Source: an uncultured Verrucomicrobiae bacterium
GTDB lineage: Bacteria; Verrucomicrobiota; Verrucomicrobiia; Limisphaerales; Palsa-1400
Assembly: GCA_963707025.1 (NCBI GenBank)
Contig: CAVPOM010000002.1
Span: 71,877-135,876, forward strand
Length of the DNA: 64,000 nucleotides
Direction: 5' to 3'
Made by a program: the position numbers and the translations under genes. The first letter of the stretch is position 1; every line of letters begins with the position of its first letter. Positions 26,853 through 48,300 of the stretch are shown here, in pieces. The notes beneath the pieces were generated by a model. It did no database searches. It was given only the letters and a program-made list of their open reading frames with translations, and was not told the DNA's origin.

Positions 26853-27076
26853 ATTTTGCTCCTCTGGGGGAAATCCCCCCTTTGTTCGCGCATCCGCTCA
26901 AGAAACGCTTCAATATCGCTTTGCATCAATCCCACCGCGCGGCCCACCCGCACCAGGCGCGGCAGTTCGCCCCGGTCAGTCATCCGCCGCACCGACCGCA
27001 CACACACGCCCAGGCTCACTGCAATCTCTGGCAATCTCATAACCCGGTCCAGTTTCTTTGCAACATCACTTTGCAT
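26849..27076 (-). CDS. AlpA/HTH excisionase-like protein
   Basis: RLPEIAVSLGVCVRSVRRMTDRGELP; translationally coupled to int. Confidence 0.8.
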   Translation of the reverse strand: MQSDVAKKLDRVMRLPEIAVSLGVCVRSVRRMTDRGELPRLVRVGRAVGLMQSDIEAFLERMREQRGDFPQRSKI

Positions 27077-27689: not shown

Positions 27690-28204
27690 TATCCACACCA
27701 ATACACCGCGCTCCACATAATGTCAACCTTTTTCTTTTGAGAGGTAAAATGGCAACCGAAGGGATTTCCCCGCGGCTCGTTCCCGTGTCGTCATCCGGCT
27801 TGCTCAAGGCAGGAAGGCCAAGCCGAATGCCAACACGCGAACGCTCCGCCCCGACAAGTGCCTGGTCGTGAAGTCGCTGGATTCCAGCTTGCGCCCTGTT
27901 TGCCCTTCGCAACATGGAATCCACCGCCATCACCACCAGGAGGTTGAAGGCAGCGAGGGAAGACCGCTTTTGGGGGCGCAATGTTATTTTCCGCTGTCGC
28001 GGACACGCAGAAGTCCGACTATGGCAGCACTCGCTCTTAGGCGCTGGCTGTCCGGTTGTTTGCCCCCGGTTCTTGAAGGCCCCCGCCCCGAAATCAACCC
28101 TTCAATGCGATCAAACACAATGGTTGACCAGCCCACCCCGTGTCGCATAGAGTTAATCCGCTCAAATTTGAATATAGCCCCCGTGTGGCGACGAGATTGC
28201 CAAA

Positions 28205-29305: not shown

Positions 29306-29813
29306 ATGTCTCCGTTGCGGTGGTGTTGCCACGCAAGCGCATCATCTGAATTACAACTACGTCGGAACTGAGCATCTACATCCAGAATGTTTGGTGTCAG
29401 TCTGCCGCCCTTGCCACGGACTGGTCGAATACGCCAGACATGCGGAATCGCTAATTTCACGAATGGAACGAAGGCTTGGCGCTCTCGACGATGGGCAAGA
29501 GCTGCCACGAGCCTACTCGCGTTTAATTGACTACAAGGCGAAACTGGTCGAGTTGCGCAGACTTTTCTCCGAGGGAATACCGCACACGAGCGAACGAGAG
29601 CCAACGGATGTTCCCTTTTTGGACCGCTACCGGGATTACCTTCGCCAAGATACCGAAAAGAAAGCCTTCGCAGCATCGGAACTTCAATCCTGGCCCGGCA
29701 CTGATGACGAAAAGCGCGCCCGAATCCGCGACTTGCTCCGAAAAGAAATCGAAAGCGTGCGGACTTTTGTGGAGCAAGTCCTTCAGCCATACCGAACACA
29801 AAATCCACTCTGA
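29178..29813 (+). CDS. HNH nuclease-like protein (start uncertain; may be a frameshifted continuation of the upstream ORF)
   Basis: VLERDFHKCLRCG, AHHLNY and LVSVCRPCH motifs. Confidence 0.7.
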   Translation: MRPLIPNGLSKAHQKGSIEPPATTSHCTWGLVRNAVLERDFHKCLRCGGVATQAHHLNYNYVGTEHLHPECLVSVCRPCHGLVEYARHAESLISRMERRLGALDDGQELPRAYSRLIDYKAKLVELRRLFSEGIPHTSEREPTDVPFLDRYRDYLRQDTEKKAFAASELQSWPGTDDEKRARIRDLLRKEIESVRTFVEQVLQPYRTQNPL

Positions 29814-29853
29814 CGCACCAGCGAAGCGACTAAGCAATCAAAGCCCGGCCATT

Positions 29854-30456
29854 TTAACCGCAGGGGCCAATTAGGCATGGTTCTTTCATGTAGTGGGGGC
29901 GTTCATTCATGAACTTGCTGCTTCGATCCGGGCAAATTCCTAAAAACCCGTAGGCCACAACGGGTTTGCCCGAATACTTCGCCGCGTTGGCAACAATCGC
30001 CGTAGCACGTCCCGAACCGTCTTCGACGTACCACTTTGCTGGGAGCTCATCCTCTACCGCCCTTCTGAGAATAAATGGCTCGCACTGCGCGAACACATCG
30101 CCCTGTTGAACACGTTTAAACCAAGAAGGATTAGTCTTAGGTTTCCAGTCGCGCAGGCAGCCTTTCGTTTCCAGGCCGCGAAGGTCACGAGGCCCATTGG
30201 TTTCTCTCGCAATCGTCTCAACCACGGCACAGTTCCTCAAGTTGTCCAGAGTAAGTTCTACGTGGTTCCACTCAGAAAAGCCTACAATCATCCCGGGCTT
30301 AAAGCGGGCCTGGGAAAGCACATTGTCCAGAAAGTCGGGGTCATCCCAATTCCACTGTGCAAAGTCTGGCAACGGTATTCCCTTTTTCGCGGCGTCGTAG
30401 CGTACGTACGCTTCGATCACTTTGCGCCTTGGCACGTTCACATAGATAGATCGCAT
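29854..30456 (-). CDS. Hypothetical protein (ParB-like YVEDGSGR motif)
   Basis: 200-aa ORF; family call weak. Confidence 0.55.
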   Translation of the reverse strand: MRSIYVNVPRRKVIEAYVRYDAAKKGIPLPDFAQWNWDDPDFLDNVLSQARFKPGMIVGFSEWNHVELTLDNLRNCAVVETIARETNGPRDLRGLETKGCLRDWKPKTNPSWFKRVQQGDVFAQCEPFILRRAVEDELPAKWYVEDGSGRATAIVANAAKYSGKPVVAYGFLGICPDRSSKFMNERPHYMKEPCLIGPCG

Positions 30457-30530
30457 ATTATCGTTTTCTTCCCGCATCGGGCAGAATGTTCGCCCACGAA
30501 CCGGCAGCAGTCCAGTTTCATCGCTTGGCC

Positions 30531-31838
30531 TCAAATCAGCAATGGGAACAACCGCCTTGCACCAGCTTGGCGAAGCCTGGGCGCCGAACTGAGCAAAGCG
30601 GGAATCCGCTCCATCCAAAACTCAACGCCCGCAAATAGTTTGACAGTGAAATCTCGCGCGAACAACTGCCCCTTCCGCATCTTCGCCCGCTTCTCCTTCG
30701 GGCAGGTCGCCATGCGATAACGGCGCATTACCCGGCGCAGCTTCAACGCCTGCCCATTCGTCAACTCCAGAACATCCCGGCGACCAAGAGGCAGATTCTT
30801 ACGGCCCACAATGCCCCAAAACCGCCCCGGCTTCGCAGACCAAATACACTCGCCAGTCTTCGCAACATACTTCTTCGCCGCATACGCGAAGGCACCGCGC
30901 TTCGAGCCAAGCGTTTGAACCGACGTGCCCGCCCGATAATGCTTCACCTCGCCGCTCCCCACCACGTCATACCAATTCCTCGCAAACCAATTCGCAATCG
31001 AATCCCCGTTCACGACAGACGGACACTTGCCATGCGGCTCTACTCGGATGGCACCCCACCCTTCGCGCTCATCCACCAGGGCGCTATGACCCTCCACCCA
31101 TGCACTCCCGCCCAAAACATCCTCATCCCAAACCACCACAGTGCCCACCATCCGGCGGCGCAAACGAACTTGCTCCGTCTGCATGGTCTTCCACTCAAAA
31201 CCCCACGGCACGCCCCAGACAAACGCATGGATATGCGGCGCGATCTTCCCCTTGTTCACCCCGCTTTTACGAGGCTGAAATTCCAGCTTCCACATCAAAC
31301 AACCGTCAGGGAACCGGCGGGCAAACCGTTTGGACAACGTATCAATGTGCCGCTTCACCTGTTCGCCATCCCAGGCGTAACGGTCAAACTCATCAGGATA
31401 CGTCAGACCCGCCATGAACGGCACCGCACCATCATCCACCTTCGCCAAGTAATCCAACATCCGCCGCCGTGACGCCGCCGTGAACTCCTCGATTTCGCCA
31501 CGCTCACCACCGCGACGCTCAGGACCGCGCAGATGTCCCTCAGAACGGCAGCGCAACTGCATGAAGCTCGCGTTGCGATAAACTTGCAACATGCCATTGC
31601 TCGTATTTGGCGGTGAATTATGCACCTTAGACAAGCCAGGTGGAACGCATGGGGTCGGCGGCCAGGCGGCCGGTGAACCGTCCACCTGGCCACCGACCCG
31701 CATTGCGGCCACAACGGCGGCAGCCTGCTCGAAAGTAGTGACCGGGGAGGAATCGAAGGAATCATTGCGCACGATCCACCCCCAAACGCGAAGCCTCAAG
31801 GAAAGCTGGCCCTCCCGCATCGTCCGTTGACACCACAT
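30531..31838 (-). CDS. Rolling-circle replication initiator (HUH endonuclease); start uncertain
   Basis: Motif I (LTYP), motif II (WKLEFQ...PHIH), motif III (YAAKKY) and GRFWG. Confidence 0.8.
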   Translation of the reverse strand: MWCQRTMREGQLSLRLRVWGWIVRNDSFDSSPVTTFEQAAAVVAAMRVGGQVDGSPAAWPPTPCVPPGLSKVHNSPPNTSNGMLQVYRNASFMQLRCRSEGHLRGPERRGGERGEIEEFTAASRRRMLDYLAKVDDGAVPFMAGLTYPDEFDRYAWDGEQVKRHIDTLSKRFARRFPDGCLMWKLEFQPRKSGVNKGKIAPHIHAFVWGVPWGFEWKTMQTEQVRLRRRMVGTVVVWDEDVLGGSAWVEGHSALVDEREGWGAIRVEPHGKCPSVVNGDSIANWFARNWYDVVGSGEVKHYRAGTSVQTLGSKRGAFAYAAKKYVAKTGECIWSAKPGRFWGIVGRKNLPLGRRDVLELTNGQALKLRRVMRRYRMATCPKEKRAKMRKGQLFARDFTVKLFAGVEFWMERIPALLSSAPRLRQAGARRLFPLLI

Positions 31839-32242
31839 TCCGCCGCAGAACCGGCGAGCAGTGGTGCTCGCTGTCCGGTTCTGCTCGATTTACTTCGCCG
31901 CCATGCCGCTCTGCTGTCACTGGCCCCCCTTCTCAGTGGCCGTGCTGGCAATGGCGAGGATTGCGGCCTTGAGCGCCACGTTGAGCCGGGGCCATGCCTT
32001 GACTACTTGGGACAGGTCATGTAAGGAAGTGACCGGAGTTTGTGAGTCTCCTTGTGAGTCTCGCGCTGTAACTCCTTGATAATCAGCAGGCGGAGGCAGG
32101 TTCAAATCCTGTCGCTCCGACCATTCAACGATCAATGGCTTGCGCAGGCTTTCTCAAGCCGGATGAAAGCCCATTGCCACTTCTATGTCGGTTTCCCCGT
32201 CAGAGGCGGCCAGCGGCCGACTTCATCGTCTGCAACGCCAGC

Positions 32243-33481: not shown

Positions 33482-34066
33482 TCATTCCCGCACGAACAGC
33501 TTCCACTCCGGAATTCCATGCGCGTTGCGGATGAGGGCCGAGGCGGGCAGTTCCCTGGGCGCGCGCGGCAGCCTGAGCAATTTCAGGCCGGCTTCGTGCG
33601 GCAGGCGGTTGCCTTTGCGGGCGTTAATGTCTTTGCCGGCCCAAACCAGGTTTTCCCAGGCGTTCTTGCCGCCGCGCGAACGGGGCAGGACGTGGTCCAG
33701 GCTGCCGTCTTCGGGGCGCAGGACGCGGCCGGTGTACTGGCAGCGGTTGCCGTCGCGCTCGCGAATGGCGCGGGCGCAGAGCTTCGGGCGCTTCTTGGGC
33801 ACCTTGGCGTAGTTCACCGCCACGATCACCGTGGGCACGCGGATGGGACCGCGCACGGTCCGCACCGCGTTGTCCTGCGGACGGATGGGCAGCGTGATCC
33901 ACTCCTCCCAAGTCACGGGGCGGATGTGATTTTGACCTTCGATTTCCAGAGCGGTCGCCACGTTCGTCGCCATCATGCAGAAGGCTTCCTGCGGCGTGCG
34001 GACGTTGACGGCCTGCCAGTTGCGGTTGAGCACCAGCACCAGCGCTTTGTTCAGTATGTCATTCAT
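33482..34066 (-). CDS. HNH endonuclease directly downstream of the tRNA array
   Basis: VLVLNRNW, RDGNRCQYTG, SLDHVLPRSRGG, WENLV and NARKGN motifs. Confidence 0.92.
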   Translation of the reverse strand: MNDILNKALVLVLNRNWQAVNVRTPQEAFCMMATNVATALEIEGQNHIRPVTWEEWITLPIRPQDNAVRTVRGPIRVPTVIVAVNYAKVPKKRPKLCARAIRERDGNRCQYTGRVLRPEDGSLDHVLPRSRGGKNAWENLVWAGKDINARKGNRLPHEAGLKLLRLPRAPRELPASALIRNAHGIPEWKLFVRE

Positions 34067-34191
34067 AAAATTAGTGGTTAGTGGCCAGTGGTTAGCGCGG
34101 TATTTCACTCTCCACTCACCACTAGCCACTGGCCACTTGCCTCCGGTGTTTGTTCTTTGTTGTTTGACTTCAGCCTTTAGCCTTTCAAATC

Positions 34192-34266
34192 TGGCTGCCC
34201 CGCCTGGTTTTGCTCCGGGTCCTCCGGCGTCAGAGACCGGCGCACTCCTGATGATGCAACGAGGCA
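34192..34266 (-). tRNA. tRNA-Gln(CTG), atypical
   Basis: CCGGT-CTCTGAC-GCCGG; T-loop AGCAAAA; CCA. Confidence 0.8.
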
Positions 34267-34348
34267 TCCGTGTGCATGGTCAATATTTGTCAATCAATTG
34301 ACAAGATATGGTTAGCCTGCCTTGCTCGCAGCCGGGATATTGGGACGC

Positions 34349-34594
34349 ATGATAATGATGAATCATATAGAGACAGGTGTTGCAGCCGAATGGCCGCCCA
34401 CGTCGAACCGCGCCGGCCGGATCGTTCCAGCCGCAAGGCCGGGAAGTTGGACTGGCCTCGCGGTTGCATGGCACGCGGCCATCAGTTATCTCGTGCCGAT
34501 TGGTTATGAAGACGCAACCGGATTCCATTACGGCGGGATGCCCGTGTCGAATACCGCAGCGAGCTTCCGCCAACCCGCTGTCAGGAACTGGTAG
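34349..34594 (+). CDS. Small protein with PxGYEDxTGFHYG motif
   Basis: Motif I recall from small Verrucomicrobia proteins (not verified); antisense to the array. Confidence 0.55.
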   Translation: MIMMNHIETGVAAEWPPTSNRAGRIVPAARPGSWTGLAVAWHAAISYLVPIGYEDATGFHYGGMPVSNTAASFRQPAVRNW

Positions 34595-34661
34595 CCCGTG
34601 CTGGTAATTCTCCAGCGTCCGCAGTTTGTAGGACTGCCGCTCTGAATTTGAGCTAACGGGC
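34589..34661 (-). tRNA. tRNA-Val(TAC)
   Basis: GCAGT-CCTACAA-ACTGC; T-loop AGAATTA; CCA. Confidence 0.85.
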
Positions 34662-34668
34662 TGCAAAT

Positions 34669-34742
34669 TGGCTGCCGGGGCTGGAATTGCACCAGCATAA
34701 GCGCCTTCAAAGGGCGCTGTCCTACGATTAGACGACCCGGCA
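34669..34742 (-). tRNA. tRNA-Gln(TTG)
   Basis: GCGCC-CTTTGAA-GGCGC; T-loop TGCAATT; CCA. Confidence 0.9.
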
Positions 34743-34849
34743 CGGGGAAAGGCTAAAGGCTAAAGGCTGAAGGCTGAATAAAGTACCAATAACCTGTCTC
34801 TGATGTCTTTACTTTAGCCTTTGGCCTTTAGCCTTCAGACTTTCAAAAG

Positions 34850-34923
34850 TGGTGGCCCGCCAGGGTAACGCTCCCTGTTCAACGGCTTAAAAGACCGTTG
34901 CATCACTTTAATGCTTGCAGGCC
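34850..34923 (-). tRNA. tRNA-Lys(TTT)
   Basis: ACGGT-CTTTTAA-GCCGT; T-loop AGCGTTA; CCA. Confidence 0.88.
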
Positions 34924-34967
34924 GTGGCAATTGCGGACTGGCGATTGCGGTTTGCGATGGGATTAGT

Positions 34968-35249
34968 CGGGGCGTTATGTAACGGCATGTAACGGCATGT
35001 AACGGGGCGTAACGGGACCAATTCAGGTGCAAGTAACTGTTGATCAATTGTTTATAGAAATGTAACGGGCGTAACGGCCAAAAGGGTATTTCCCGCTGGA
35101 AAATGACAAGGCGGGGCGTTATGTAACGGCATGTAACGGCATGTAACGGGGCGTAACGGGACTAATTCCAGTGCAAGCAACTGTGGCTCAACGGCTTGCA
35201 GAAATGCAACGGTTGTAACGGCCAAAAGAGCACTTCCCGCTGGAAAATG
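34968..35249. repeat. Imperfect tandem duplication (period 144 nt) rich in GTAACGG
   Basis: Copies at 34968-35105 and 35112-35249. Confidence 0.85.
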
Positions 35250-35325
35250 GAGCCTCCAGCCGGCGATGCTCCGGCATTATTTCTTTACAAAAGAAATCCG
35301 TCCCGATGGATCGGGACATGGAGGC
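35248..35325 (-). tRNA. tRNA-Thr(TGT), extended D hairpin
   Basis: TTTCT-TTTGTAA-AGAAA; D arm GTCCCGAT-CC-ATCGGGAC; CCA. Confidence 0.75.
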
Positions 35326-35368
35326 GAAAAGATTGCCGACCCGCCCGCCGTAACTCGCGGAGCGAAGG

Positions 35369-35441
35369 CGGTTCGCAGTCCCCAGTGCTGCCCTGGGCAG
35401 AGCGGGCGTATGAAACCTGCCTGAGCGCTGGCTCGACTGCG
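35369..35441 (-). tRNA. tRNA-Met(CAT)-like, degenerate
   Basis: Acceptor CGCAGTC/GACTGCG, loop TTCATAC, small D arm, no intact CCA. Confidence 0.6.
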
Positions 35442-35567
35442 CGGCGCGCATGGCCGTCCCGGCGGAGGGCTGCACACGGCCGAAAATGGCGTCCTTGACC
35501 GGCTTCGCTCCCGCCTCAGAAGCGACGGCGGGCAGCCTTCGCCACCTTTGGCGAAGGTGGCGAAGGC

Positions 35568-35659
35568 TGGTGCGCGCGTCCGGTAACGCTCCGGAACCCG
35601 GCACTCATCTAGTGCGATGCGGGGTATAAGGCCGCCGGCTCTCTTTGAGCTACGCGCGC
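35568..35659 (-). tRNA. tRNA with TAT (Ile) anticodon and long variable arm
   Basis: GCGCGCG acceptor, loop CTTATAC, V arm GCACT-AGATG-AGTGC, A73-CCA. Confidence 0.8.
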
Positions 35660-35763
35660 GAAAATGGCCTGGCAGCCGCAGCGGCGCAAGACCAACGGCA
35701 AAGCCCACCTTCGCTGAAGCTGCGGCCGGCAGCCTTCTCCACCTGCGCACAGGTGGCAGAGGC

Positions 35764-35855
35764 TGGCGGAATGCCGTGGATTTGCGCCACACCCCCATTT
35801 CCAGGAGCGCACTGTTTAGCAAACAGGCCCGGCTCACTCGTCCGGTTGACATTCC
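35764..35855 (-). tRNA. tRNA-Ser(GCT), 8/4 fold
   Basis: GGAATGTC/GGCATTCC acceptor, GTGG/CCAC T stem, long V arm, G73-CCA. Confidence 0.85.
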
Positions 35856-35891
35856 AGATTGGCTTGCCCGCCGGAGCTGGCAAGCAAAGGA

Positions 35892-35975
35892 GGGTCGGCG
35901 TGGGGAGACTTGCACCCCCAAGGCTGCCAGATTCTGAGTCTGGACCCTCTGCTGTTCGGGTTAAACCACATGCCC
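35892..35975 (-). tRNA. tRNA-Leu(CAG)-like, degenerate, short variable region
   Basis: CCAGA-CTCAGAA-TCTGG; mismatched acceptor; ends in CCC. Confidence 0.6.
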
Positions 35976-35982
35976 GTGAAAT

Positions 35983-36058
35983 TGGCACTCCCGGAAGGAC
36001 TCTCACCCTCATCTCCGACGTTCGAAGCGTCGCGCTCTGGTGATTGAGCTACGGGAGC
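35983..36058 (-). tRNA. tRNA-Arg(TCG)
   Basis: CGACG-CTTCGAA-CGTCG; T-loop TGAGAGT; CCA. Confidence 0.88.
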
Positions 36059-36066
36059 ATTGCAAT

Positions 36067-36140
36067 TGGTGAGTTGCCACGGATTCGCACCGTGCTCTGC
36101 GGTTTAAGAGACCGCTGCATCGCGGCAATGCTTGCAACCC
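36067..36140 (-). tRNA. tRNA-Lys(CTT)
   Basis: GCGGT-CTCTTAA-ACCGC; T-loop TGCGAAT; CCA. Confidence 0.9.
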
Positions 36141-36309
36141 GAACGCGACACGAAGGCGGAGTTGAATCCCGATTCCGAATCGGGACACCGGTGTTCGCGT
36201 CGCGTGAAGTGATCCCAAGCGAACTGAGTCTGGCGTGCGGCGGCTGGCCGCGCGCAAGCCCCTTCGACCGCGCGGGGTCCCTGCCGGCAGGCCGGATTCA
36301 CTTGGGAAA

Positions 36310-36384
36310 TGGACGGGCATCAGGGTAGCGCGCCCTGTATTCCGGTTTGGAAAACCGGCGTGTGTCTCTCAACACTTATGCCCG
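36310..36384 (-). tRNA. tRNA-Gly(TCC)
   Basis: CCGGT-TTTCCAA-ACCGG; T-loop CGCGCTA; U73-CCA. Confidence 0.85.
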
Positions 36385-36403
36385 AGTAAGAAAGCGGTTG
36401 CCG

Positions 36404-37921
36404 TCAGCGGGGTGCCGGGGACGGTTCTTTCGCCACAAAGCTATCGGCGCTCCCGGGGTCGCCGCTCCCTTTATATATCGCGGTCGTGGGGTAGCGAAAA
36501 AGAGGCCTCGTCATCTGGATTTTGCCGTTGTTGCTTTTGGAGGCGATGACTCTGTCAGGAGGATGGCCGTGTTCCACCCAATCCACCATGACGGCAAGCC
36601 AGTCCACCTCACTTGCGCCAGGCCCGCCGCCGCAATGGAGGCAGCCCGGAACCATGAAGAGCCGGCAGTAGTCGCTGGCGTTGGGATCGCGCGCCTGTAC
36701 TTGACGATAATAATTGATGGTGGCTTGCGGCGGCAGCGCCGGATCGGCCCATCCGTGCCAAAGGATGAGTCTGCCCTTTCGCGCCTTCAGGCCATCCAAG
36801 TTGATGTTGGTCGCGTCGAGAAAGGAGGCGGCCAGCCGCGTCTGGGCCGCAAAATTTGAAAAATCGCAGGTCGAATAATTCCAATCAGGATTATTGAAGA
36901 CCAGGTATTTGAAGATCTGAGTGCCGAAGGCAAAAAGCAGATCGGGGGCATGATCCTGGGCGAGTTGCGGCGCTGGTCCGACAATCCACGCAATCCACTG
37001 GGCAGGATCGCATTCCGCGCCGGGCGTGTAGCCGGGATAAATTGGCCCTTGCTCGTTGCGGGCGCCCGCGTAAATGGCCTCGATGGCTTTGCGCTGTTCG
37101 TCGGTTAACCCGGCCACTTTGGACAAGTCGAAGTGCGCGGAAGGCGGATCTTGCACGACGCCGTCCTTCAGACCGTCTTGCCCGTCGCATTGCTCGATAA
37201 TGGCCTGCTGCAACTTCTGGAGGCTCTCTCTATCGAGCACGGTTTTATCGAGATGGCCAGGGTCCGGGTAAAGCGCCTTCTCTATGGACACGGCGTTGGC
37301 GGCCAAGCCCGGCCAGTCAAACGCCGGCGCGCCGGCCACAATCCCGTCGAAGTCCATTGGATACCGCTGCGCCTCCATCATGGCCTGGCCTCCGCCGCGC
37401 GAGCAACCTGTGAAATAGCAGTAGGCGGCGTCCGCGCCGTAATAACTGCGGATAAGAGCCTTGGCCACTTCGGCCGTGCGATGCACCGCGAGATGACCGA
37501 AATTGACCTGCGCCTCCAAGTCGTCGAGCGCCCAACCGGCCATGTAGCCGGGTTGCCACTCGTGCCCGGCGTCGGTCCCGACCGTCGCGTAGCCGTGATT
37601 GACCGAACCCAGAGCCGAGTTCTGCACCGTTCCGACAAACCCGCCGCCGCCTCCCATCACGAAGCGCCCATTCCACGAATCCGGCAGCAGCAACTCAAAA
37701 CGGATGTGGCCCCCAATGACGCCCTCCACCTTGACAGCCGCGGCATGAAGATTTCCCACGAGGGCCGGAGCCACCGGCGTGGCCGATTCCAAAACCACGT
37801 CCGGCAAGCGCACCTGCCGCAGGTTCTCAACGGTGATGTGATTGGTCAATTGGCCTGACGCATCGGCGCTGCCGCACAGCACGGCCAGACAGGCGAGGAA
37901 ACTTCGTTTGACGTGTTGCAT
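36404..37921 (-). CDS. Tannase/feruloyl esterase family hydrolase
   Basis: Signal peptide; WNGRF, GCSRGG, HGWAD and PGCLHCGGG motifs. Confidence 0.92.
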   Translation of the reverse strand: MQHVKRSFLACLAVLCGSADASGQLTNHITVENLRQVRLPDVVLESATPVAPALVGNLHAAAVKVEGVIGGHIRFELLLPDSWNGRFVMGGGGGFVGTVQNSALGSVNHGYATVGTDAGHEWQPGYMAGWALDDLEAQVNFGHLAVHRTAEVAKALIRSYYGADAAYCYFTGCSRGGGQAMMEAQRYPMDFDGIVAGAPAFDWPGLAANAVSIEKALYPDPGHLDKTVLDRESLQKLQQAIIEQCDGQDGLKDGVVQDPPSAHFDLSKVAGLTDEQRKAIEAIYAGARNEQGPIYPGYTPGAECDPAQWIAWIVGPAPQLAQDHAPDLLFAFGTQIFKYLVFNNPDWNYSTCDFSNFAAQTRLAASFLDATNINLDGLKARKGRLILWHGWADPALPPQATINYYRQVQARDPNASDYCRLFMVPGCLHCGGGPGASEVDWLAVMVDWVEHGHPPDRVIASKSNNGKIQMTRPLFRYPTTAIYKGSGDPGSADSFVAKEPSPAPR

Positions 37922-38050
37922 AACTGCCGGTCATTACACCTCGCGACAGTGAACCTGGCAATCTCTTTCGGCCAGCCTCGCCACTATTCGAAAGCGTGTT
38001 CGGCAAGGTCGCGCTTGTCAGGTTTCGGTCCGCGGACGCATCATGTTTGC

Positions 38051-38812
38051 ATGACGATTCCGATGGAGTTGCTGCAACGCCTGGCCGCCGCCAAAAGCGT
38101 GACCGTGCTGACGGGCGCGGGCGTGTCAGCGGAAAGCGGTGTCCCCACATTTCGCGACGCCCGAACCGGGCTGTGGGCGAAATTCAGCCCCGAAGAACTG
38201 GCCACGCCGCGCGCCTTCCGGCGAAATCCCCGCCTGGTTTGGGAATGGTATGAATGGCGGCGTGAGCTTGTCGCCGGCGCAAAGCCAAACCCGGCGCACT
38301 TTGCGCTGGCAGAAATGGAGAAGGTTGTGCCGCGGTTCCATCTCATCACGCAAAACGTGGATGGCCTGCATCAATGCGCTGGAAACCGGAGCGTCATCGA
38401 ATTGCACGGCAATATCATGCGCACCAAATGCTTTGAGGAAGGCACGCTGGTTTCGAGTTGGAAAGACACCGGCAACGTCCCGCCGAAATGTCCAGCCTGT
38501 GGCGGCTGGTTGCGCCCCGACGTGGTTTGGTTCGAGGAGCCGATGCCGCAAGCGGAGATGGCACAGGCCGCGACGGCCAGCACGACATGCGATGTCTTTT
38601 TTTCCATCGGCACGTCCACCGTTGTTTATCCCGCGGCTGCCCTGCCAGCGGAAGCATTGCGCAGCGGCGCGACCGTGGTGGAGATCAATCCGCAGCCCAC
38701 CCCATTCACCCCGCAGGCGCATTTCGCTCTGGCTGGCGCGGCCGGAGTTGTGTTGCCCGAATTGGTGAAGGCGCTCGACGCCATGCGCGGTGGGCTGCGT
38801 GCGTCGTCGTAA
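38051..38812 (+). CDS. cobB: NAD-dependent deacylase (Sir2/CobB family)
   Basis: TGAGVSAESGVPTFR, TQNVDGLH, ELHG, LRPDVVWF and GTS motifs. Confidence 0.92.
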   Translation: MTIPMELLQRLAAAKSVTVLTGAGVSAESGVPTFRDARTGLWAKFSPEELATPRAFRRNPRLVWEWYEWRRELVAGAKPNPAHFALAEMEKVVPRFHLITQNVDGLHQCAGNRSVIELHGNIMRTKCFEEGTLVSSWKDTGNVPPKCPACGGWLRPDVVWFEEPMPQAEMAQAATASTTCDVFFSIGTSTVVYPAAALPAEALRSGATVVEINPQPTPFTPQAHFALAGAAGVVLPELVKALDAMRGGLRASS

Positions 38813-38864
38813 GCCCGCCTCCGCTCTGCGAGCCGCGGCGGGAGACCTTTGTTGTGGCGAAGGT

Positions 38865-38939
38865 TGGAATCCCGTGTGGGGGTCGCACCCACCTGCGTGG
38901 TTTTGCAGACCACTGCCTCGGCTGCTCGGCCAACGGGAT
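38865..38939 (-). tRNA. tRNA-Cys(GCA)
   Basis: GTGGT-CTGCAAA-ACCAC; U73-CCA. Confidence 0.9.
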
Positions 38940-39077
38940 GTGAAATCAGAAGTGCGGGCGGAAGCTTCCGCCTCCGCCCGCCTTAGTTGCCTCTTGGCGT
39001 CGTTCCATCGGATTTCAATGTGCCGCCTCGCCCGGTTCCGTCTTCGCATTGGCCGGTGGCGTGATACAAATTGAAAT

Positions 39078-39152
39078 TGGGGTGACCAACCGGAGTTGCA
39101 CCGGCACAAACGCCGTCACGGGCCGTGATGCTGCTGTTACATCATGATCACC
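39078..39152 (-). tRNA. tRNA-His(GTG)
   Basis: Loop CCGTGAC; G-1:C73; CCA. Confidence 0.85.
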
Positions 39153-39257
39153 ATAAAAAAGTGCCGAGTGAAGATTGCAGAGTGCAGAGTGGGAAATGCC
39201 ATTGGGCACCTGCTACTTTCCACTCCGCACTCTGCACTCTGCACTCTCCACTTCAAA

Positions 39258-39333
39258 TGGAGCCCCCGGCCGGACTCGCACCGGCGAATACGAGTTTACG
39301 AAACTCGCCCTGTTGCTGCTGAGGCACAGGGGC
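39258..39333 (-). tRNA. tRNA-Thr(CGT)
   Basis: CGAGT-TTCGTAA-ACTCG; CCA. Confidence 0.88.
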
Positions 39334-39426
39334 GTGAAAGAAAGTATGACGGCTGAAGGCTAAAGGCTAAAGTAAAGACATTTGGATTTTAGCCTTCAGC
39401 CTTTAGCCTTTAGCCTTTCCCAACAC

Positions 39427-39504
39427 TGGCGCTCTCACATGGATTTGCACCATGAGCCTCCGCCTTCGCAAGGCGGCGTGCAGATCTAATTACACCTTGA
39501 GAGC
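39427..39504 (-). tRNA. tRNA-Arg(GCG)
   Basis: CCGCC-TTGCGAA-GGCGG; G73-CCA. Confidence 0.85.
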
Positions 39505-39507
39505 AAA

Positions 39508-39585
39508 TGGCGTCCGTGGCCGGACTCGCACCGGCTAGGACCAGCTTGAAGGACTGGATGCGCGAGCTGCTTTGCATTCACGGAC
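39508..39585 (-). tRNA. tRNA-Glu(TTC)
   Basis: CCAGT-CCTTCAA-GCTGG; CCA. Confidence 0.85.
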
Positions 39586-39606
39586 TAATTGCGCAGGGCC
39601 AGGAGT

Positions 39607-39681
39607 CGGCCCCCGAGGTTGGTATCGCGCCAACGTCTCCTCCTCTTCAGGGAGGTGCTAATCTGCCTCAGCTACCCGGGG
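39607..39681 (-). tRNA. tRNA-Phe(GAA)
   Basis: CCTCC-CTGAAGA-GGAGG; ends in CCG. Confidence 0.78.
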
Positions 39682-39690
39682 AAATGACTC

Positions 39691-39767
39691 GGTAGGGCGA
39701 GACTCCGTCGAGCCGTGACTCGATTTCATGGGATAAATTCAGGGTTCGAACAGAGTCTCACCCTACC
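39691..39767. repeat. REP-like hairpin (GGTAGGG...CCCTACC)
   Basis: ggtagggcgagactccgtcgagcc / ggttcgaacagagtctcaccctacc. Confidence 0.7.
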
Positions 39768-39778
39768 TGGAAAAAGTA

Positions 39779-39849
39779 TCGTCCCGGCAGGTAACGCTCC
39801 TGCTTCTTCCGGTTATCAACCGGAGGCTCTGCTTTTGAGCTACGAGACG
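39779..39849 (-). tRNA. tRNA-Ile(GAT)
   Basis: TCCGG-TTGATAA-CCGGA; CCA not encoded. Confidence 0.82.
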
Positions 39850-39995
39850 TTGGTCAATTGGGGCTTCACGCCGAACCGATGCACGGGGCGGAACACCAGA
39901 TTCAGCTTCGCGGTCGGTCGGATTCGAATGCCACGGCTTGGCTTATAACTTCTGCGGAACAGAAGTTGACTTTGATTGCGACGGGCGATTTTCAT
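39840..39995 (-). CDS. Putative 51-aa basic peptide inside the tRNA array
   Basis: AAAGGA 7 nt before ATG; MKIARRNQSQLLFRRSYKPSRGIRIRPTAKLNLVFRPVHRFGVKPQLTNVS. Confidence 0.45.
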   Translation of the reverse strand: MKIARRNQSQLLFRRSYKPSRGIRIRPTAKLNLVFRPVHRFGVKPQLTNVS

Positions 39996-40021
39996 CGGGT
40001 TTCCTTTCGTTGAGGTTTAAT

Positions 40022-40112
40022 TGGCGAAAGGCGTCGGTAACGCTCCGACCTCGGGTTTGAGCCGATCCTGTTTTCGGGACAGGCGCAGCCAGCTTGTATC
40101 TGCCTGCCTTCC
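40022..40112 (-). tRNA. tRNA-Ser(CGA)
   Basis: CCTGT-CCCGAAA-ACAGG; long V arm; G73-CCA. Confidence 0.88.
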
Positions 40113-40209
40113 ATGAGTGCAGAATTGGGATTGTAGAATGCAGAATAGGAAATCATTTGTGGCTTCATGGAGCATTCCTCACTTTGCATTCTGCACTCTG
40201 CATTTAAAA

Positions 40210-40283
40210 TGGCTGCCAGACTTGGACTCGCACCAAGACAAGCGGCTTAACAGGCCGCCGTGCTACTTTGACACCACCTGGCA
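40210..40283 (-). tRNA. tRNA-Asn(GTT)
   Basis: GCGGC-CTGTTAA-GCCGC; CCA. Confidence 0.9.
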
Positions 40284-40346
40284 ATGGCGCTGCCGGCAGG
40301 ATTCTCACCTGCAGCCTTCGCCCGCCGGCACGCAGCAGGCGAAGGC

Positions 40347-40434
40347 TGGTGGGAAGTGCTGGTAATGCTCCAGTCGTCGCTTCCAGCTTGTTTGAAGACA
40401 CCGGATTTACAGGCCGGCAGCCGGATCACTTCCC
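40347..40434 (-). tRNA. tRNA-Tyr(GTA)-like lacking a D arm
   Basis: GGGAAGTG/CACTTCCC acceptor, 9-nt linker, loop CTGTAAA, long V arm, A73-CCA. Confidence 0.75.
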
Positions 40435-40440
40435 TGAAAT

Positions 40441-40513
40441 TGGTAGCGGGGGTGGGAGTCGCGCCCACGGAGGCTGAGCTTATGGGGCTCGCCTGAATCT
40501 CATTCTCCCCGCA
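40441..40513 (-). tRNA. tRNA-Met(CAT), initiator-like
   Basis: U1:U72 mismatch, GCGGGG/CCCCGC acceptor, loop CCCATAA, small D arm, CCA. Confidence 0.75.
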
Positions 40514-40618
40514 GTGAAAAGGCCTGGCAGCCGTGGCGGCGCAGGACGAAGCATCAGCCCGCCGTCGCTAAAGCCATGGCGGCCAGCCTTCGCCCGCCGC
40601 TATGCAGCGGGCGAAGGC

Positions 40619-40693
40619 TGGTGGAGTCGGTGGGTAACGCTCCCACATCAGCTTGCTTGCAGGGCAAATGCATTGCTTGTCTGCCACGACCCC
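40619..40693 (-). tRNA. tRNA-Ala(TGC)
   Basis: G3:U70 pair; loop CCTGCAA; CCA. Confidence 0.88.
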
Positions 40694-40700
40694 ATGAAAT

Positions 40701-40772
40701 TGGCAGGCTGCCTCCGTGCCGCCCGGAGTGGGCTGAGTTTTGGAGACCCGGCCGCGTGCTGACGCGCAGCCT
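40701..40772 (-). tRNA. tRNA-Trp(CCA), small D arm
   Basis: AGGCTGC/GCAGCCT acceptor; loop CTCCAAA; G73-CCA. Confidence 0.75.
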
Positions 40773-40783
40773 GCAAAAGAAGT

Positions 40784-40857
40784 TGGTGCGGCTGCCGGGA
40801 GTTGCGCCCGGACTTCCTCCGTGGCGGGGAGGCATTCTGCTGTTAAATCACAACCGC
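40784..40857 (-). tRNA. tRNA-Gly(GCC), first gene of the array
   Basis: CCTCC-CCGCCAC-GGAGG; A73-CCA. Confidence 0.85.
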
Positions 40858-40905
40858 GGAAATTAAAAGGGCCGGGCGCGTTGCTGCGCCCGGCCCATGC
40901 CATTT

Positions 40906-40923
40906 CAACAAAGAACAAACACC
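40906..40923 (-). promoter_or_regulatory. boxA-like leader sequence, complementary to the array trailer at 34145-34162
   Basis: Minus strand reads GGTGTTTGTTCTTTGTTG; perfect 18-bp inverted copy at the other end of the array. Confidence 0.65.
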
Positions 40924-40980
40924 TCTTGGCGATCTATTCGATCCCAACCCGCGGTTTCACGGCGGCTGTTTCGGTGTTTA

Positions 40981-41038
40981 GCCCTTCGACTCCGCGCGTC
41001 GCGCGTCGCTCAGGGCTAACCCTGAGCTTGCCGAAGGG
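40981..41038. repeat. REP-like repeat (CCCTTCGAC...CTCAGGG...CCCTGAG...CGAAGGG)
   Basis: Nested palindromes seen directly. Confidence 0.65.
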
Positions 41039-41275
41039 TTTTAGGGGCACACCTCCTATAAAGCCCTTGATATGTAAATCTAAAATTCGTCTCGTCCATC
41101 CTGGTGACGCTGTTCTTCTGGTCGTGGGCAGAACCCACCGGTGAGGTTTCTCCGCTCATCCTCGCCAAATTCAATTTATTGCCAGAAGACATCATCAAGA
41201 TGTCGCTTTGTTCTTGTTTACAGATTATCCGTCTTTCATTGTTAATCGTTCCCATTCATGCTGTTCAGCGATAAT

Positions 41276-41307
41276 AAAAAACCCTGCTTGCATTTCGGCA
41301 AGCAGGG
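41276..41307 (-). terminator. Intrinsic terminator (attenuator) upstream of the tRNA array
   Basis: CCCTGCTTGC-CGAAAT-GCAAGCAGGG-TTTTTT. Confidence 0.9.
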
Positions 41308-41330
41308 CGGAGAAAGTTCTGTTTCGTTCG

Positions 41331-41501
41331 TTACCTGCTTGCCAGGAGTCCATCCAACTTGACCTGTTGTTCCGATGCGGTGCTGGATAGGCTAAGGCCA
41401 AACACACTACCCCGGTTATACCGGTTATGACGTGTCCCAATGGTCATTGGGGCCGCCGTAATCGGCCAACTCGCGGTTGATATGTTTAAGCAAGCTTTCA
41501 T
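41331..41501 (-). CDS. Putative 56-aa attenuator leader peptide
   Basis: MKACLNISTASWPITAAPMTIGTRHNRYNRGSVFGLSLSSTASEQQVKLDGLLASR*; lies between the promoter and the terminator; its last codons form the antiterminator strand. Confidence 0.75.
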   Translation of the reverse strand: MKACLNISTASWPITAAPMTIGTRHNRYNRGSVFGLSLSSTASEQQVKLDGLLASR

Positions 41502-41514
41502 TGAACTTATAAGA

Positions 41515-41543
41515 AGGGTATCATGCCCTGTTTATTTCGTCAA
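41515..41543 (-). promoter_or_regulatory. Sigma70-like promoter of the tRNA array
   Basis: TTGACG-17 nt-TACCCT with extended -10 TG and AT-rich upstream region; ATG 13 nt downstream. Confidence 0.7.
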
Positions 41544-42340: not shown

Positions 42341-45300
42341 ATGAATGACACCAACGCCAGGAGACACACTCGGGAGGATGTCTGTTTCCCGCAGGAAAAG
42401 CCGGCACGAAGACCAAAACCCGTCCGCGTGGAGCGGCGCCGGGTGCCGATCGAATGGCGCGGCCAGTCTGGAGCGCTGCCCCGGGCGAAGGTGGTGTTCC
42501 GCAACAGCCTAGCGGTGCTTCTGGCGGCGGGCGCGTTTGGTGTTGCGCAAGCCAGCCCGCCGCAGGCACCTGTCTTTACCACGCAGCCGGCGAGCCAGAC
42601 GGTGGCAGCGGGCGGGACGGCCACACTGAGCGCGGTCGCGTCGGGCAGCCCGGCGTATCAGTGGTATTTCGCGTTTAACGGGGCAACCAACCTGATAGCA
42701 ACCGGCGCATCGGCGAGCATCGGCGGCGACTATGCAAACGAAGGGAACTTTTTCTGCGTGGCCAGCAATTCGTACGGAGCGACGACCAGTTCGGTCGTGT
42801 CGCTGGGGGTTCAATTTGCGTGGTTGGAGTATGGCTACTCTGGAGGGTGGCAGGTACTATACGGTTCCGTCCGGCGTGACCAATCTCGCGGTGGATGCGG
42901 TTGGGGCCGGCGGAGGAAGCGGCGGACACGACGCGAGTGTTGCCGGCTATGCGGGGGGCGGGCGCATCTGGTTTTGGGGCGTGGCGAACGTGACGGCGGG
43001 CGGCACGGTAACTATTGGCCTGGGTGGCACGGGAGGCGGAGGCGGGTCGTCGGTGGACTGCGCCGGGGCCGGCCCCGGCGGGTACTCTCCGTGGGGCGGT
43101 GTCTATGGCGGGTCAGGCGGCAATGCGGGCTGCACCGGCACCTCCGGGGGCGGTGGCGGCGGCGGCGGAATTTCGATTGTTGAGTTTCCATCCGGCGCGT
43201 CCTATCCGTACCTGGTGTTGGGCGGGGCGGGTGGCGGAGGCGGGGGCGGCATTAACGGGGCCGACGGTTCTTCCAGCGGAGGATACCCCTCACAGGAACT
43301 GGCCAGCTCGTCGGGATATACTCCCAGCGCCTACAGTGGTGGCGGCGGAGCCGGTTCGTCGGGCGATGGCGGCGGCGGCGGCGGCGGCGGCGCGGGGATT
43401 TGGAGCGTGTCGGGGGGCGGCACGTTTGGCACGGGCGATCATATTGGCGGCGGCGGCTACGGAGGTTATTCATTCCAGCCGGACAATCTCGCGCCATCCG
43501 GCAACTCGTGGAATCATAGCTGGTACGATAACGGGGCCAGCTCGGGGGTCTGCGCCTTCCGGCCGGCGGCCCTGGCCCGGATCTCGATGCCGGGACCCAG
43601 TGTCACGATTTTGTCCGGCCAGAGTTTGTCGTTGACAGCGCAGTTTTTTACGCAGGACACCGTCGAATACGTCAAATGGTATCGGAACGGCAGCTATTAC
43701 ACCTCAACCGCGGCGGCTTCGCAGGGCGATTATGCCTATAGCTCCACGCTTGCTTTCGGGACGGGCTACGCCAACGGAGATGTCTGGACGGTGCGGATTG
43801 AGACTTACCTGGAATCTTATTGGGGCGAAGCCATTTATCCGGTCGCCATCAGCACGGCGACCACGCTGAACGTAATTTATTCTCCCGCGATTGGCAGCGA
43901 GCCAGGCAGCCAGACCGTGACGAGCGGCGGGAGCGCCTCCTTCAGTGTGACGGCGACCGGGGCGACTCCGCTGTATTACCAGTGGCAAGACGATGGCGCC
44001 CGCCTGAGCGGCGCGACCAACGGGAGCTACAGCCTGAGCGCGGCGCGAACCAGCGACGCGGGCAGCTACACCGTGGTGGTGAGCAACGCATACGGGGCCG
44101 TGACCAGCACGGTGGCGGTGCTAACGGTGAACAAAGCCACCCCCGTGGTCAATTCCTGGCCCACCGCCAGCGGCATCACCTACCTGCAGGCCTTGTCGGC
44201 CTCGACTTTGAGCGGCGGCAGCGCCAGCGTGGGAGGCACTTTTGCGTTCACGACGCCCGCGAGCACGCCGCCGGTAGGCAGTGACGCCGCGTCCGTCACC
44301 TTCACGCCGACCGACACCGATAACTACAACACTGTTACCGGCTCGGTGAACGTGGCTGTCGTTCAAGCCACTCCGCTCGTCAGCGTGTGGCCCGCTGCCA
44401 GCGCCATTACATACGGGCAGGCCCTCTCGGCTTCCACGTTGAGCGGAGGGACGGCCTCGACCGGAGGCAGCTTTGCCTTCGCTACACCTGGAACCACCCC
44501 CAGCGCCGGAACTTGCTATGCCTCCGTCGTATTCGCGCCGTCAGACACGGCCAGCTACAACGCGGTGACGGACACGGTTGCGGTGGTCGTGGGCAAGGCG
44601 GCGTCGCTTGTGACCGCCTGGCCCGCCGCCAGCGGAGTTACCTACGGGCAGAAGCTCTCCGCCTCCACCCTCGGTTCCGGGACGGCGGCGCCCGGCGGCA
44701 CGTTCGCCTTCACCGCGCCTTTGACGACACCGAACGCGGGGACTTACACCGCCGCAGTCACTTTCACCCCGACCGATGCTTTGGACTACAGCATCGCCAG
44801 CGGAACGACACAGGTGACGGTGAGCCAGGCCACGCCGACTGTGACCGCGTGGCCCGCCGCCAGCGGGATCGTCTATGGACAGCCTTTGGCGGTGTCCCTC
44901 TTGAGCGGGGGCAGCGCTTCGGTGAGCGGCAGTTTCACTTTTGATGCGCCAACGAACACGCCGGATGCCGGGAACTACAGCGCGGCGGTGAGCTTCACGC
45001 CTGCCGACACGGCGGACTACAACGCGGTGAGCGGGACGACCAGCGTCACAGTGGCCCAGGCCGCCCAAGTGATCACGCTCCAGTTGCAGGCTAGCAATTC
45101 GATCCCGCTCAACCAGTTCACCAATGTCCCGGTCCTGGCCACAGCCAGCTCGGGCTTGCCCGTGGTCCTGACGCTGGGAAGCAACAGCGTGGCGGCGCTG
45201 GACCCGACGGGGACCAATTTGGTATCCATCGGGCAGACTGGCATCGTGACCCTGCTGGCCGATCAGGCCGGCGACAGCAATTATCTGGCGGCGACCGAGG

Positions 45301-48300
45301 TGGCGGCAACCTTTGACGTCACGATGATGAACCAGACCATTACATTCGCGCCGATCCCGCCCCAGGTAACAACCAATTTGACCTGGCCATTGAGCGCCAC
45401 CTCCGACTCCGGCCTGCCGGTGGCTTTCGCCGTGATGAGCGGCCCAGCGACGCTCGACTCCACTGGCACCAATGTGACCTTCACTGGCGCGGGATCGGTG
45501 GTGGTGCAAGCCTCCCAGCCTGGCGACGGCACCAATTACAACCCCGCGGTTCCCGTCATGCAGGCGATTCAGGTCAGCCTGGCGCAATCCGCCATCACTT
45601 GGAGCGCGCTGCCGGTTTCGACCTTCGGCGACCCGCCGTTCAGCCTGGACGGAGTGTCGAGTTCCGGGGACGCCGTCACTTACACCAGTTGGAACACCAA
45701 TGTGGCCGTGGTGCAGAGCAATCTGGTTACCATCGTCGGCGCCGGCACGGCGGTCATCTCCGCGCAAGACGCGGGGGACAGTTTCTATTCTGTTGACACT
45801 GTCCAGCAGGTGTTGACGGTGAATCCGGCCACCCCGGCGCTCACCCTGCCCTCCGCCACTTCCATCACCTTCGGCCAGAGCCTGGCCTCCGCGACGCTGA
45901 CCAATGGCAGCGCGGACTTGGGCACCAACGCCGTGAGCGGCAGTTTTGTCTTCGTGGACGCCTCGATTGCTCCCAATGCCGGCGTCTATGCGGCTGCGGT
46001 ACTGTTCACGCCAAGTGACACGACCGACTATACGAGCGTTCTCACCAATGTAAACGTCGTGGTCGCGCCGCTCGCGCCGGCCATCATCGCCTTGCCGGCG
46101 GCCATGCCGATCACCTTCGGCCAGAGTCTGGCGGCTTCCGGGCTGATCAATGGCAGCGGGTCGGTTCCGGGCAGTTTCGCCTTTGCGGACAGCAGCGCCA
46201 CGCCGGGCGGCGCGGGGGCATATACCGCAACGGTGACATTCACCCCGGCGGACACCAATTACGCCGTGGTTACTGCCTACGTGCAAGTCGAGGTGGACCA
46301 GGCCGCTCCCATTGTCAGTTCGTGGCCGATTACGACGCCGATCAATTTCGGCAATCCGTTGTCGGCCTCCACCCTGGTCGGCGGCAGCACCACCCCGGCG
46401 GGGACGTTTGCCTTCAACGACCCCACGGCGATTCTGAATGTGGGCACCAACTATGTGCTGGTCGTTTTCACGCCGAATGACTCGGCCGACTACACGACAG
46501 TCACCGGGTCGGTGGCGGTGGCGGTGGGGCAAGGCCTCGTGGAAATCACGGTGCTGCCGGCCGCTTCGCCCATCACCTACGGCCAGAGCCTGGCCTCCTC
46601 GGCCTTGAGCGGCGGCAACGCGACGGTGGGCGGGAGCTTCGCCTTTCAGGACAGCAGCCTGATCCCGCCCGGCGCGGGGACTTACAACGCGGCGGTGGTG
46701 TACACGCCGACCAACGCGAATTACTCGGTGATCGTGACCAATGTCGCGGTGACGGTGAACAAGGCGACGGCCACGGTCATGTTGAGCGACACCAACCAGA
46801 ACTATAACGGCGCGGCCAGGAGCGTCACCGTCAGCACCACGCCGGCCGGTTTGACCGTCGAGGTGACCTACAATGGCGCCGACACGCCGCCCGTAACGGC
46901 AGGCTCCTATGCGGTGGCCGTCACTGTCAACGACACTAATTACACCGGCTCCGCCACCGGCACGCTCCTCGTGAGCAAACTTCCGCTGGCCGTAACGGCG
47001 CAGGGCGTGACCCGGTGGTATGGCGGCACCAACGCCCCGTTCACGGCGACGGTCAACGGATTCGTCAACGGCGAGAACATGAACAACCTGTCCGGCAGCC
47101 TGGCCTTTACCGTGGAGGACACCAACGCCACGGAGGTTTCGGTGGACACCAACACGCAGGCCGGGACCTACACGATTATTCCCGGCGGCCTGGGCTCCAG
47201 CGACTACACGATCACCTATAGCAACGCGACCTTGCTGATCATCCCGGCGATCCTGACGGTGACGGCGGACAGCCTGACCAATGTCTATGGCTCGCCCATA
47301 CCGGCATTGACCTGGAGTTACCAGGGATTTGTGAATGGCGAAGGCACCAATGTGCTCTCGGGCGCTCCGAGCTTGAGCACCGATCTCTCTTCCGGCAGCC
47401 CGGTCGCGGGCAGCCCTTATACGATCACCATCACCACCGGGACGTTAAGCGCCAGCAACTACATCTTCACCAACTATAACGGGACCTTCACCGTTCTGGC
47501 GGCGCTCCTCACCGTGAGCGCCGACAACGTGACCAACGTCTATGGCTCGCCCATGCCGGGGCTGACCGGTTCCATGTCGGGTGTCACCAACAACGATCCG
47601 TTGTCGGTTTCCTTCACCACGGCCGCGACCCAGAGCAGCAGCGTCGGCGCTTACAACATCCTGCCCTTGTTCAACGACCCGAACCTGCTGGCGAATTACA
47701 CCGTTACCACCAACCTCGGGACGTTCACCGTCACCCCGGCGCCCCTGCTGGTGACGGCCGACCCTCAAACCCGCGCCTACGGCTATGCCAACCCGGCGCT
47801 CACCCTGACCTACAGTGGATTTGCCGCTGGCGATGACGCCTCTGCGCTTCCGGTGGCACCGACGGCGACGACCCCGGCGGTGCCGGCTTCACTCCTGGGT
47901 TCGTACCCGATTACGCTTGGCGGCGGTGTATCCGGCAACTACACGTTCACCTATGTGAACAGCACACTGACGGTGACGAAGGCGCCGCTGACGGTCGTGG
48001 GTAACAACGCCAGCCGTCCCTTCGGCTCGGCCAACCCGGCCTTCACGGCAACCATCACCGGAGTCATGAACAACGACAATATCGCCGCCCGGTTCTACAC
48101 CAGCGCGACCACCAACAGCCTGCCGGGTGATTATATCATCCGGCTTTCCCTGAGCGATCCCGCCGGCAAGCTGGGGCAATACAGCGCGACCCTCAACAGC
48201 GGCATCCTGACGGTGACGGGGGCCACGTTGATTGGCCAAGTGCAGGACGTGCGCCGCGCCTACGGCCAAACCAATCCCGTGTTCACCGTGAGCTACAGCG

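Follow-up and report, generated by a model that had tools for sequence, protein, structure and literature searches.

The stretch of DNA analysed here (the window) comprises 64,000 nucleotides (nt) from an uncultured Verrucomicrobiae bacterium (assembly GCA_963707025.1, contig CAVPOM010000002.1, positions 71,877 to 135,876 of the forward strand), and carries on its minus strand a long transfer RNA (tRNA) array enclosed by two complementary arms, a leader ahead of the first tRNA and a trailer behind the last. The best explanation of these arms, which we consider probable, is that they form an RNA leader-trailer helix that bears a boxA element and closes the array transcript, copying the layout of the host ribosomal RNA (rRNA) operon (rrn), with probable recruitment of Nus factors and cutting by RNase III. 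The helix, its position around the array and the frozen core of its leader strand emerge from comparing the sequences, and the pattern of changes in the two arms indicates that the helix is selected as RNA and that the leader core is under a second constraint, acting on the single strand.

A complementary pair of arms encloses the tRNA array

The leader arm (40906..40923, minus strand), which provides the 5' strand of the helix and is identical in the genome's second array, and the trailer arm (34145..34162, minus strand), which provides the 3' strand, are 18 nt long each, 100% complementary and 6743 nt apart. The former lies 48 nt upstream of the first tRNA-like gene and the latter 29 nt downstream of the last, so that the perfect repeat just outside the first and last tRNA, reported in an earlier note made from the sequence alone, was borne out in its coordinates, its complementarity and its position relative to the tRNA-like genes. 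The leader arm contains a boxA-like core, GTTCTTTG (40909..40916, minus strand), the same eight letters that are found ahead of the host 23S stem, and the trailer arm, ~80 nt before the start of a gene for an HNH endonuclease, is a conserved island amid unrelated flanks. Only two matches to the arm sequence with up to three mismatches exist in the window (0.08 expected), a number reached in none of 100 shuffles. Genome-wide, there are 682 perfect inverted repeats of at least 18 nt whose arms are separated by 1-12 kb, and 51 of these are low-copy. Thus, the length of 18 nt is by itself little proof, and the reality of the array repeat rests on its recurrence and covariation. A shuffle control for the genome repeats, in which 9 of 200 shuffles gave an 18-nt repeat, was discarded because self-palindromes had been counted in.

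Two further arrays were found in the same genome. The second, on contig C8, has the identical arm pair, 10.9 kb apart, with its trailer, 912 nt past the last tRNA, lying between unrelated flanks. The third (C4:150748-155695, L002) is without its 5' half, leader and HNH gene, and no leader motif for it was found anywhere in the assembly; it retains the trailer, with one mismatch, ~1.7 kb behind the last tRNA and after an inserted gene that looks HipA-like.

To survey relatives, the HNH gene was used as a search anchor that is independent of the arms. The best-scoring 60 HNH matches, together with the window and C8 arrays, gave 62 loci, of which 29 have both arms and 16 a trailer whose leader would fall past the end of the contig; the rest comprise one trailer without an array in 19 kb, one unusable locus and 15 loci without trailer, the latter with only 0-3 tRNA calls each. 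Among 80 loci from named genomes, seven more with both arms were identified (plus one duplicate), the remainder being mostly HNH paralogues without arrays, and among 80 viral loci both arms are present in L153, L154 and L200, with a more diverged bracket in L214. L076, which is on the same contig as L034, was left out. The family is thus distributed over Verrucomicrobiota (a Pedosphaera-like order, Verrucomicrobiaceae and Opitutaceae) and three viral contigs.

The arms covary, and the leader core is constrained as a single strand

In the 39 arrays with both ends, each leader was scanned against all downstream sequence of its own locus; in 38 of them no site gave a better duplex than the trailer that follows the last tRNA, across spans of 2-12 kb, and the helices measure 16-24 pairs. 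Several helix positions exchange one pair for another: T-A in 30 arrays and G-C in 8 at position 5, T-A in 29 and C-G in 9 at position 6, and G-C in 16, T-A in 14 and A-T in 2 at position 14. Moreover, the whole 5' side has been replaced in L062 and L200 with pairing retained. The covariation that the earlier note had proposed as a check is therefore present, both as double-sided changes at positions 5, 6 and 14 and as replaced arms.

Changes were counted on a tree of the HNH proteins (37 rows; L057 and L001, the latter a wrong-frame translation, left out). At positions 0-6 they are balanced between the two arms, 12 in the leader and 13 in the trailer, 10 of them pair-to-pair. At positions 7-13, which correspond to boxA, 2 leader changes compare with 18 trailer changes, and their outcome is 16 G-U cells, 2 mismatches and 10 unpaired. 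The leader core GTTCT.T (G7-T11, T13) is invariant in all 39 arrays. Balanced changes at positions 0-6 combined with lopsided changes at 7-13 point to selection at the RNA level plus an additional single-strand constraint on the core.

The same asymmetry bears on an alternative that we regard as unlikely, namely that the helix is only a processing or end-protecting stem, its GTTCT core being held by RNase III or another factor, with no antitermination. Such a stem would be as long as rRNA needs (17 bp or more according to the text of PMC10250234), RNase III is present, and rho is in pieces in the assembly. A reader of double-stranded RNA should, however, constrain both strands, whereas the leader alone is frozen at positions 7-13, and the letters kept there belong to boxA.

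The leader core matches boxA of the host rRNA operon

Read on the RNA strand, the core G-Y-U-C-U-U-U is conserved in 39 of 39 arrays, apart from position 12 (A in 3), and includes G2, C5 and U6, described as the key NusB contacts of boxA in PMC3177189. In the host rrn, the leader contains GCTCATTG and the spacer both GTTCTTTA and GTTCTTTG; the bases of the 16S and 23S stems read GCTCATTG and GTTCTTT(A,G), paired with G-U-rich trailers. GTTCTTTG precedes the 23S stem in the host and in four of the seven relatives with a spacer, and GTTCCTTG does so in the other three. The comparison with the host boxA suggested in the earlier note thus gave a match, the leader core being identical to the GTTCTTTG before 23S. 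Host boxA sites in turn form part of the paired base of both the 16S and the 23S stem (-47.1 and -35.1 kcal/mol), as against -37.3 kcal/mol for the array duplex with its flanks. Outside the core, the array arms are unlike the host rrn stems.

Among host factors, a nusB gene is present, and a single RNase III-family match was found, in a frame of 332 amino acids; a Mini-III reading based on a motif found no support, as this was the sole match of the family. Two rho-like loci were noted, C4:691675-692918 and C4:477387-478153, each in three frameshifted pieces, and their fragmentation is possibly an assembly error.

A proposed course of transcription and processing

According to the layout of the locus, transcription would start at a promoter ~600 nt upstream and would have to pass a leader-peptide attenuator. 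The leader arm would then emerge single-stranded, and its boxA core, to judge from its invariance and from the rRNA system (PMC10250234), would bind NusB-NusE(S10). The resulting rrn-type elongation complex could traverse kilobases of RNA that is not translated while keeping the leader close to the RNA polymerase exit channel, an arrangement described as a model for rRNA in the text of PMC10250234. Behind the last tRNA, the trailer would pair with the arm over 16-24 bp, the step to which the covariation speaks. Since boxA lies within the helix, this pairing should release NusB-S10, and burying boxA in this way may end antitermination before the downstream repair genes. RNase III, whose gene is present, would probably cut the stem, separating leader, tRNA block and downstream mRNA.

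Several points weigh against this proposal. The leader of L057 pairs better with an internal site, and in L018, L046 and L200 the margin over the next-best site is below 1 kcal/mol. The arrays are kin, so that sequence counts overstate their independence; at positions 14-19 the pairs were called with a duplex fold biased towards pairing, which inflates the counts of double-sided changes (34), the ungapped pairing table being the more conservative view of covariation; and the leader is rich in G and T, so that any trailer transition gives G-U and the G-U excess is partly compositional. The core departs after position 7 from GYTCTTTAANA, the gammaproteobacterial boxA consensus given in PMC5725501, the arm continuing with GTTG; most host rrn boxA sites likewise continue with G, off that consensus. 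In the assembly rho occurs only as frameshifted pieces. Furthermore, tRNAs fold locally, and the rationale for a helix in rRNA therefore does not carry over. Finally, no such bracket was found in 19 of the 20 phage tRNA clusters that are more distant but have related HNH genes. The blanks of the scored helix search are weak, as it favours G+C and missed true A+T-rich brackets in L074, L079, L093, L153, L200 and L214. In two viral loci, L205 and L211, a boxA-like site stands at most ~20 nt from the first tRNA gene, and no complementary trailer was found.

The position of the trailer

In all 39 arrays the tRNAs are on the leader's strand, and the trailer follows them; the one tRNA call behind a trailer, in L153, is low-scoring and lies within the rtcB frame. 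The earlier note had suggested that the trailer may close a processing stem before the HNH gene. As to position, this applies to 33 of the 39 arrays, in which the HNH start follows the trailer after 7-116 nt. It does not hold as a tie to HNH, given that rtcB follows the trailer in three arrays (L079, L153 and L154), that the HNH gene precedes it in two others (L085 and L093, where an SPFH gene follows), and that the C4 array keeps its trailer without an HNH gene; in L057 the site is internal. In L079 two trailer copies are present, ~1620 nt before HNH (in front of rtcB) and ~90 nt before HNH. The trailer stays beside the following gene even where cargo of up to 5 kb has been inserted behind the last tRNA. 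In L015, an additional boxA-like match within the array, 1534 nt before HNH, is able to form 11-12 bp with the trailer.

A trailer always behind the tRNAs and yet not fixed to HNH fits a mark that ends a special mode of transcription, and it may secondarily serve to control the gene that follows. More specifically, the trailer could act as an anti-boxA off switch that strips NusB-S10 from the looped transcript at a set point, the same polymerase then switching from a ribosome-free, rRNA-like mode over the tRNA block to a translation-coupled mode for HNH and rtcB, an idea that we put forward only tentatively.

That the helix mainly serves to control whichever gene comes after the trailer (HNH, rtcB or the SPFH gene), whose message would be released or become translatable only after a full-length array transcript, seems to us rather improbable. 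The short and recurrent distance to the gene start, the two copies in L079 and the persistence of the trailer beside its gene despite cargo insertion argue for such control. Against it, the following gene varies, the truncated C4 array retains its trailer in the absence of HNH, and intergenic placement in a dense operon would yield the same pattern. This kind of control is nevertheless compatible with the boxA-bearing closing helix and does not exclude it.

An action of the arms as DNA, either as the inverted repeats at the ends of a mobile element or as sites of inversion, excision or looping, is very unlikely. Such an action would agree with a perfect inverted repeat that surrounds variable cargo and with an integrase and a recombinase-domain gene within 9 kb, and both-sided change also occurs in transposon ends. 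Nevertheless, homology between the window array (contig C2) and the C8 array extends ~690 nt beyond the leader arm and, on the outer side of the trailer, through the HNH gene, and no target duplication is seen at the arms. On these grounds terminal inverted repeats of a transposon or insertion sequence were rejected, and the outcome named in the earlier note as fatal to an RNA reading, namely transposon ends with a target duplication, did not materialise. In addition, the leader is flanked on its outer side by a conserved motif, the tRNAs share the leader's strand throughout, the integrase element next to the array carries separate att repeats and leaves the array out, and the unequal constraint on the two strands and the tolerance of G-U fit RNA. 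Four DNA metagenome runs compared with the region proved to be contigs of relatives and were uninformative on ends and expression; no arm-to-arm joint occurs among the 15 of 87 joints listed from them. Least probable of all is that the arms are left over, without function, from an rRNA-operon segment that was once captured, which would account for the boxA core common to arm and host rrn, but not for pairing retained through many independent changes in three Verrucomicrobiota groups and viral contigs, nor for arms that beyond the core are unlike rrn stems.

Anatomy of the array and its leader region

Along the minus strand, the locus is composed of a likely promoter, a leader open reading frame (ORF), an attenuator, a structured motif, the leader arm, a hairpin, the tRNAs with their cargo, the trailer arm and the HNH gene. 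The likely promoter is of sigma-70 type (TTGACG, 17 nt, TACCCT; 41515..41543); it was recognised by eye and was not flagged in a consensus scan. The leader ORF (41331..41501) has 56 codons, in a region 89% identical in the genome's second array, and its last codons overlap the antiterminator for the next terminator, the attenuator at 41273..41308, whose stem has the end of the ORF as an alternative pairing partner. By eye, the same ORF/attenuator layout recurs with other letters in distant arrays, and the two elements could form a sensor of translation stress. A coding reading of the segment between attenuator and arm was dropped because of a frameshift, seen by eye, between the two genome copies.

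In that segment the earlier note had also placed a partial complement of the arm, just after the attenuator. The complement is present (~41206-41219), with 2 of 13 letters mismatched, but it is not a conserved feature. In the remaining 38 arrays, the closest match in the 600 nt upstream differs at 3-5 of 13 letters; one at the equivalent place (3 mismatches) exists only in L001 and L018, and the segment varies freely in the alignment.

Abutting the arm, a structured leader motif (40924..41066, minus strand) contains a probable small pseudoknot (GGC/GCC and GGTGT/ACACC) and two hairpins. It is found in 38 of the 39 arrays, the window copy having a 63-nt insertion in a loop, and in eight Opitutaceae-type arrays the second stem of the pseudoknot changes from GGTGT/ACACC to GCTGA/TCAGC. 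No Rfam family came near the gathering score for the motif, and E values up to 10 gave only sub-threshold hairpin matches, so that the motif is probably an uncatalogued structured RNA with a pseudoknot. A local pairing between GGTGT of the arm and ACACC of the motif, suggested by the centroid fold of L001, is not general, because eight arrays have TCAGC, seven of which retain GGTGT in the arm. Between the leader arm and the first tRNA, a G+C hairpin with a short U-rich tail (40860..40896, minus strand) resembles a terminator; in most arrays of the same order the hairpin is retained and the tail is variable.

The enclosed array (34192..40857, minus strand) holds 19 tRNA-like genes at a relaxed ARAGORN threshold and 10 at the default. 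Both the first (Gly-GCC, 40784-40857) and the last (Gln-CTG, 34192-34266) were detected at the relaxed threshold only. Rfam matched tRNAs only and no rRNA in the window, which means that the enclosed block holds no rRNA. Cargo within the loop consists of a gene of the tannase/feruloyl esterase family (36404..37921, minus strand) and, on the opposite strand, of an open frame of the Sir2 family (37913..38812, plus strand), whose true start is probably further in; in the arrays of relatives, rtcB and TROVE/Ro60 genes are present. Palindromic short-unit inserts, several of which are among the longest inverted repeats of the region, occur between tRNA genes at 34100-34190, 34745-34844, 39159-39421 and 40115-40202, often at places where relatives have none. 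Just outside the trailer, the HNH endonuclease gene (33482..34066, minus strand) encodes 194 amino acids with matches to Pfam HNH_4 and HNH_5.

In the surroundings of the array, a 6.5-kb integrated element (25513-32130) carries an integrase next to tRNA-Pro and has att repeats at ~25561 and ~32095, in which the 3' end of the tRNA is repeated. A large region encoding an MBG/Ig-repeat surface protein spans three open frames at 42732-51308 on the plus strand.

Relation to known systems

With the leader-trailer and boxA system of rRNA and the rrnTAC, as described in the texts of PMC10250234, PMC11404451 and PMC3177189, the array shares complementary segments that flank a long non-coding block, here over 16-24 pairs, a boxA core with G2, C5 and U6 and a hairpin before boxA. 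It also shares a near-invariant leader with a wobble-tolerant trailer, as PMC10250234 describes for boxC. The array helix is in line with the ~17 bp criterion of that system, but it encloses 2-12 kb of tRNA and cargo with no rRNA. It would thus work in the manner of rrn leader-trailer helices without being one of them, since no rRNA lies inside. Two further differences are that boxA lies in the middle of the array helix, whereas in the accounts of Escherichia coli rrn it lies 18-19 nt before boxC, and that a leader-peptide attenuator and the uncatalogued pseudoknot motif stand ahead of the array helix.

As a long co-oriented tRNA block with an HNH gene, the array of the window is of the kind known as long tRNA arrays (L-arrays), of which the trn operon of Anabaena PCC 7120 is an example and for which Verrucomicrobia are among the phyla listed; mycobacterial tRNA array units are likewise close to it (PMC8421152, PMC5966550, PMC12803027). 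The Anabaena operon is described as regulated by direct repeats in its promoter and has HNH upstream, whereas the window array has HNH downstream and possesses an attenuator. In the main texts of these three papers boxA does not occur and no repeat bracketing the array was found described, and that of PMC11404451 has a single mention of tRNA, in the context of rrn. A boxA-bearing helix around a tRNA array was not found in the literature searched, with most subscription papers and supplements such as that of PMC8421152 lying outside the search.

Sites of boxA are found in the leaders of CRISPR arrays. With the boxA of suhB and other mRNAs outside rRNA operons (PMC5725501), the array has in common a leader boxA on a non-rRNA transcript available to the host Nus machinery. 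The text of that paper describes no complementary trailer, in contrast to the covarying partner found here kilobases away.

Significance

Leader-trailer helices have hitherto been treated as a feature of rRNA precursors, and a role independent of RNase III is described as an open question in PMC10250234 and PMC11404451. A conserved, covarying helix around tRNA genes, which do not depend on long-range help to fold, separates the roles in transcription and processing from ribosome assembly and makes them testable. If the off switch were true, the array would provide a ribosome-free system in which the roles of leader-trailer helices can be tested apart from rRNA folding, and, together with the attenuator and the pseudoknot motif, it would amount to control of a stress tRNA operon by RNA in three stages. 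The arms also offer a short signature for locating array boundaries, and the helix suggests how long, mostly silent arrays of spare tRNAs get transcribed to their end.

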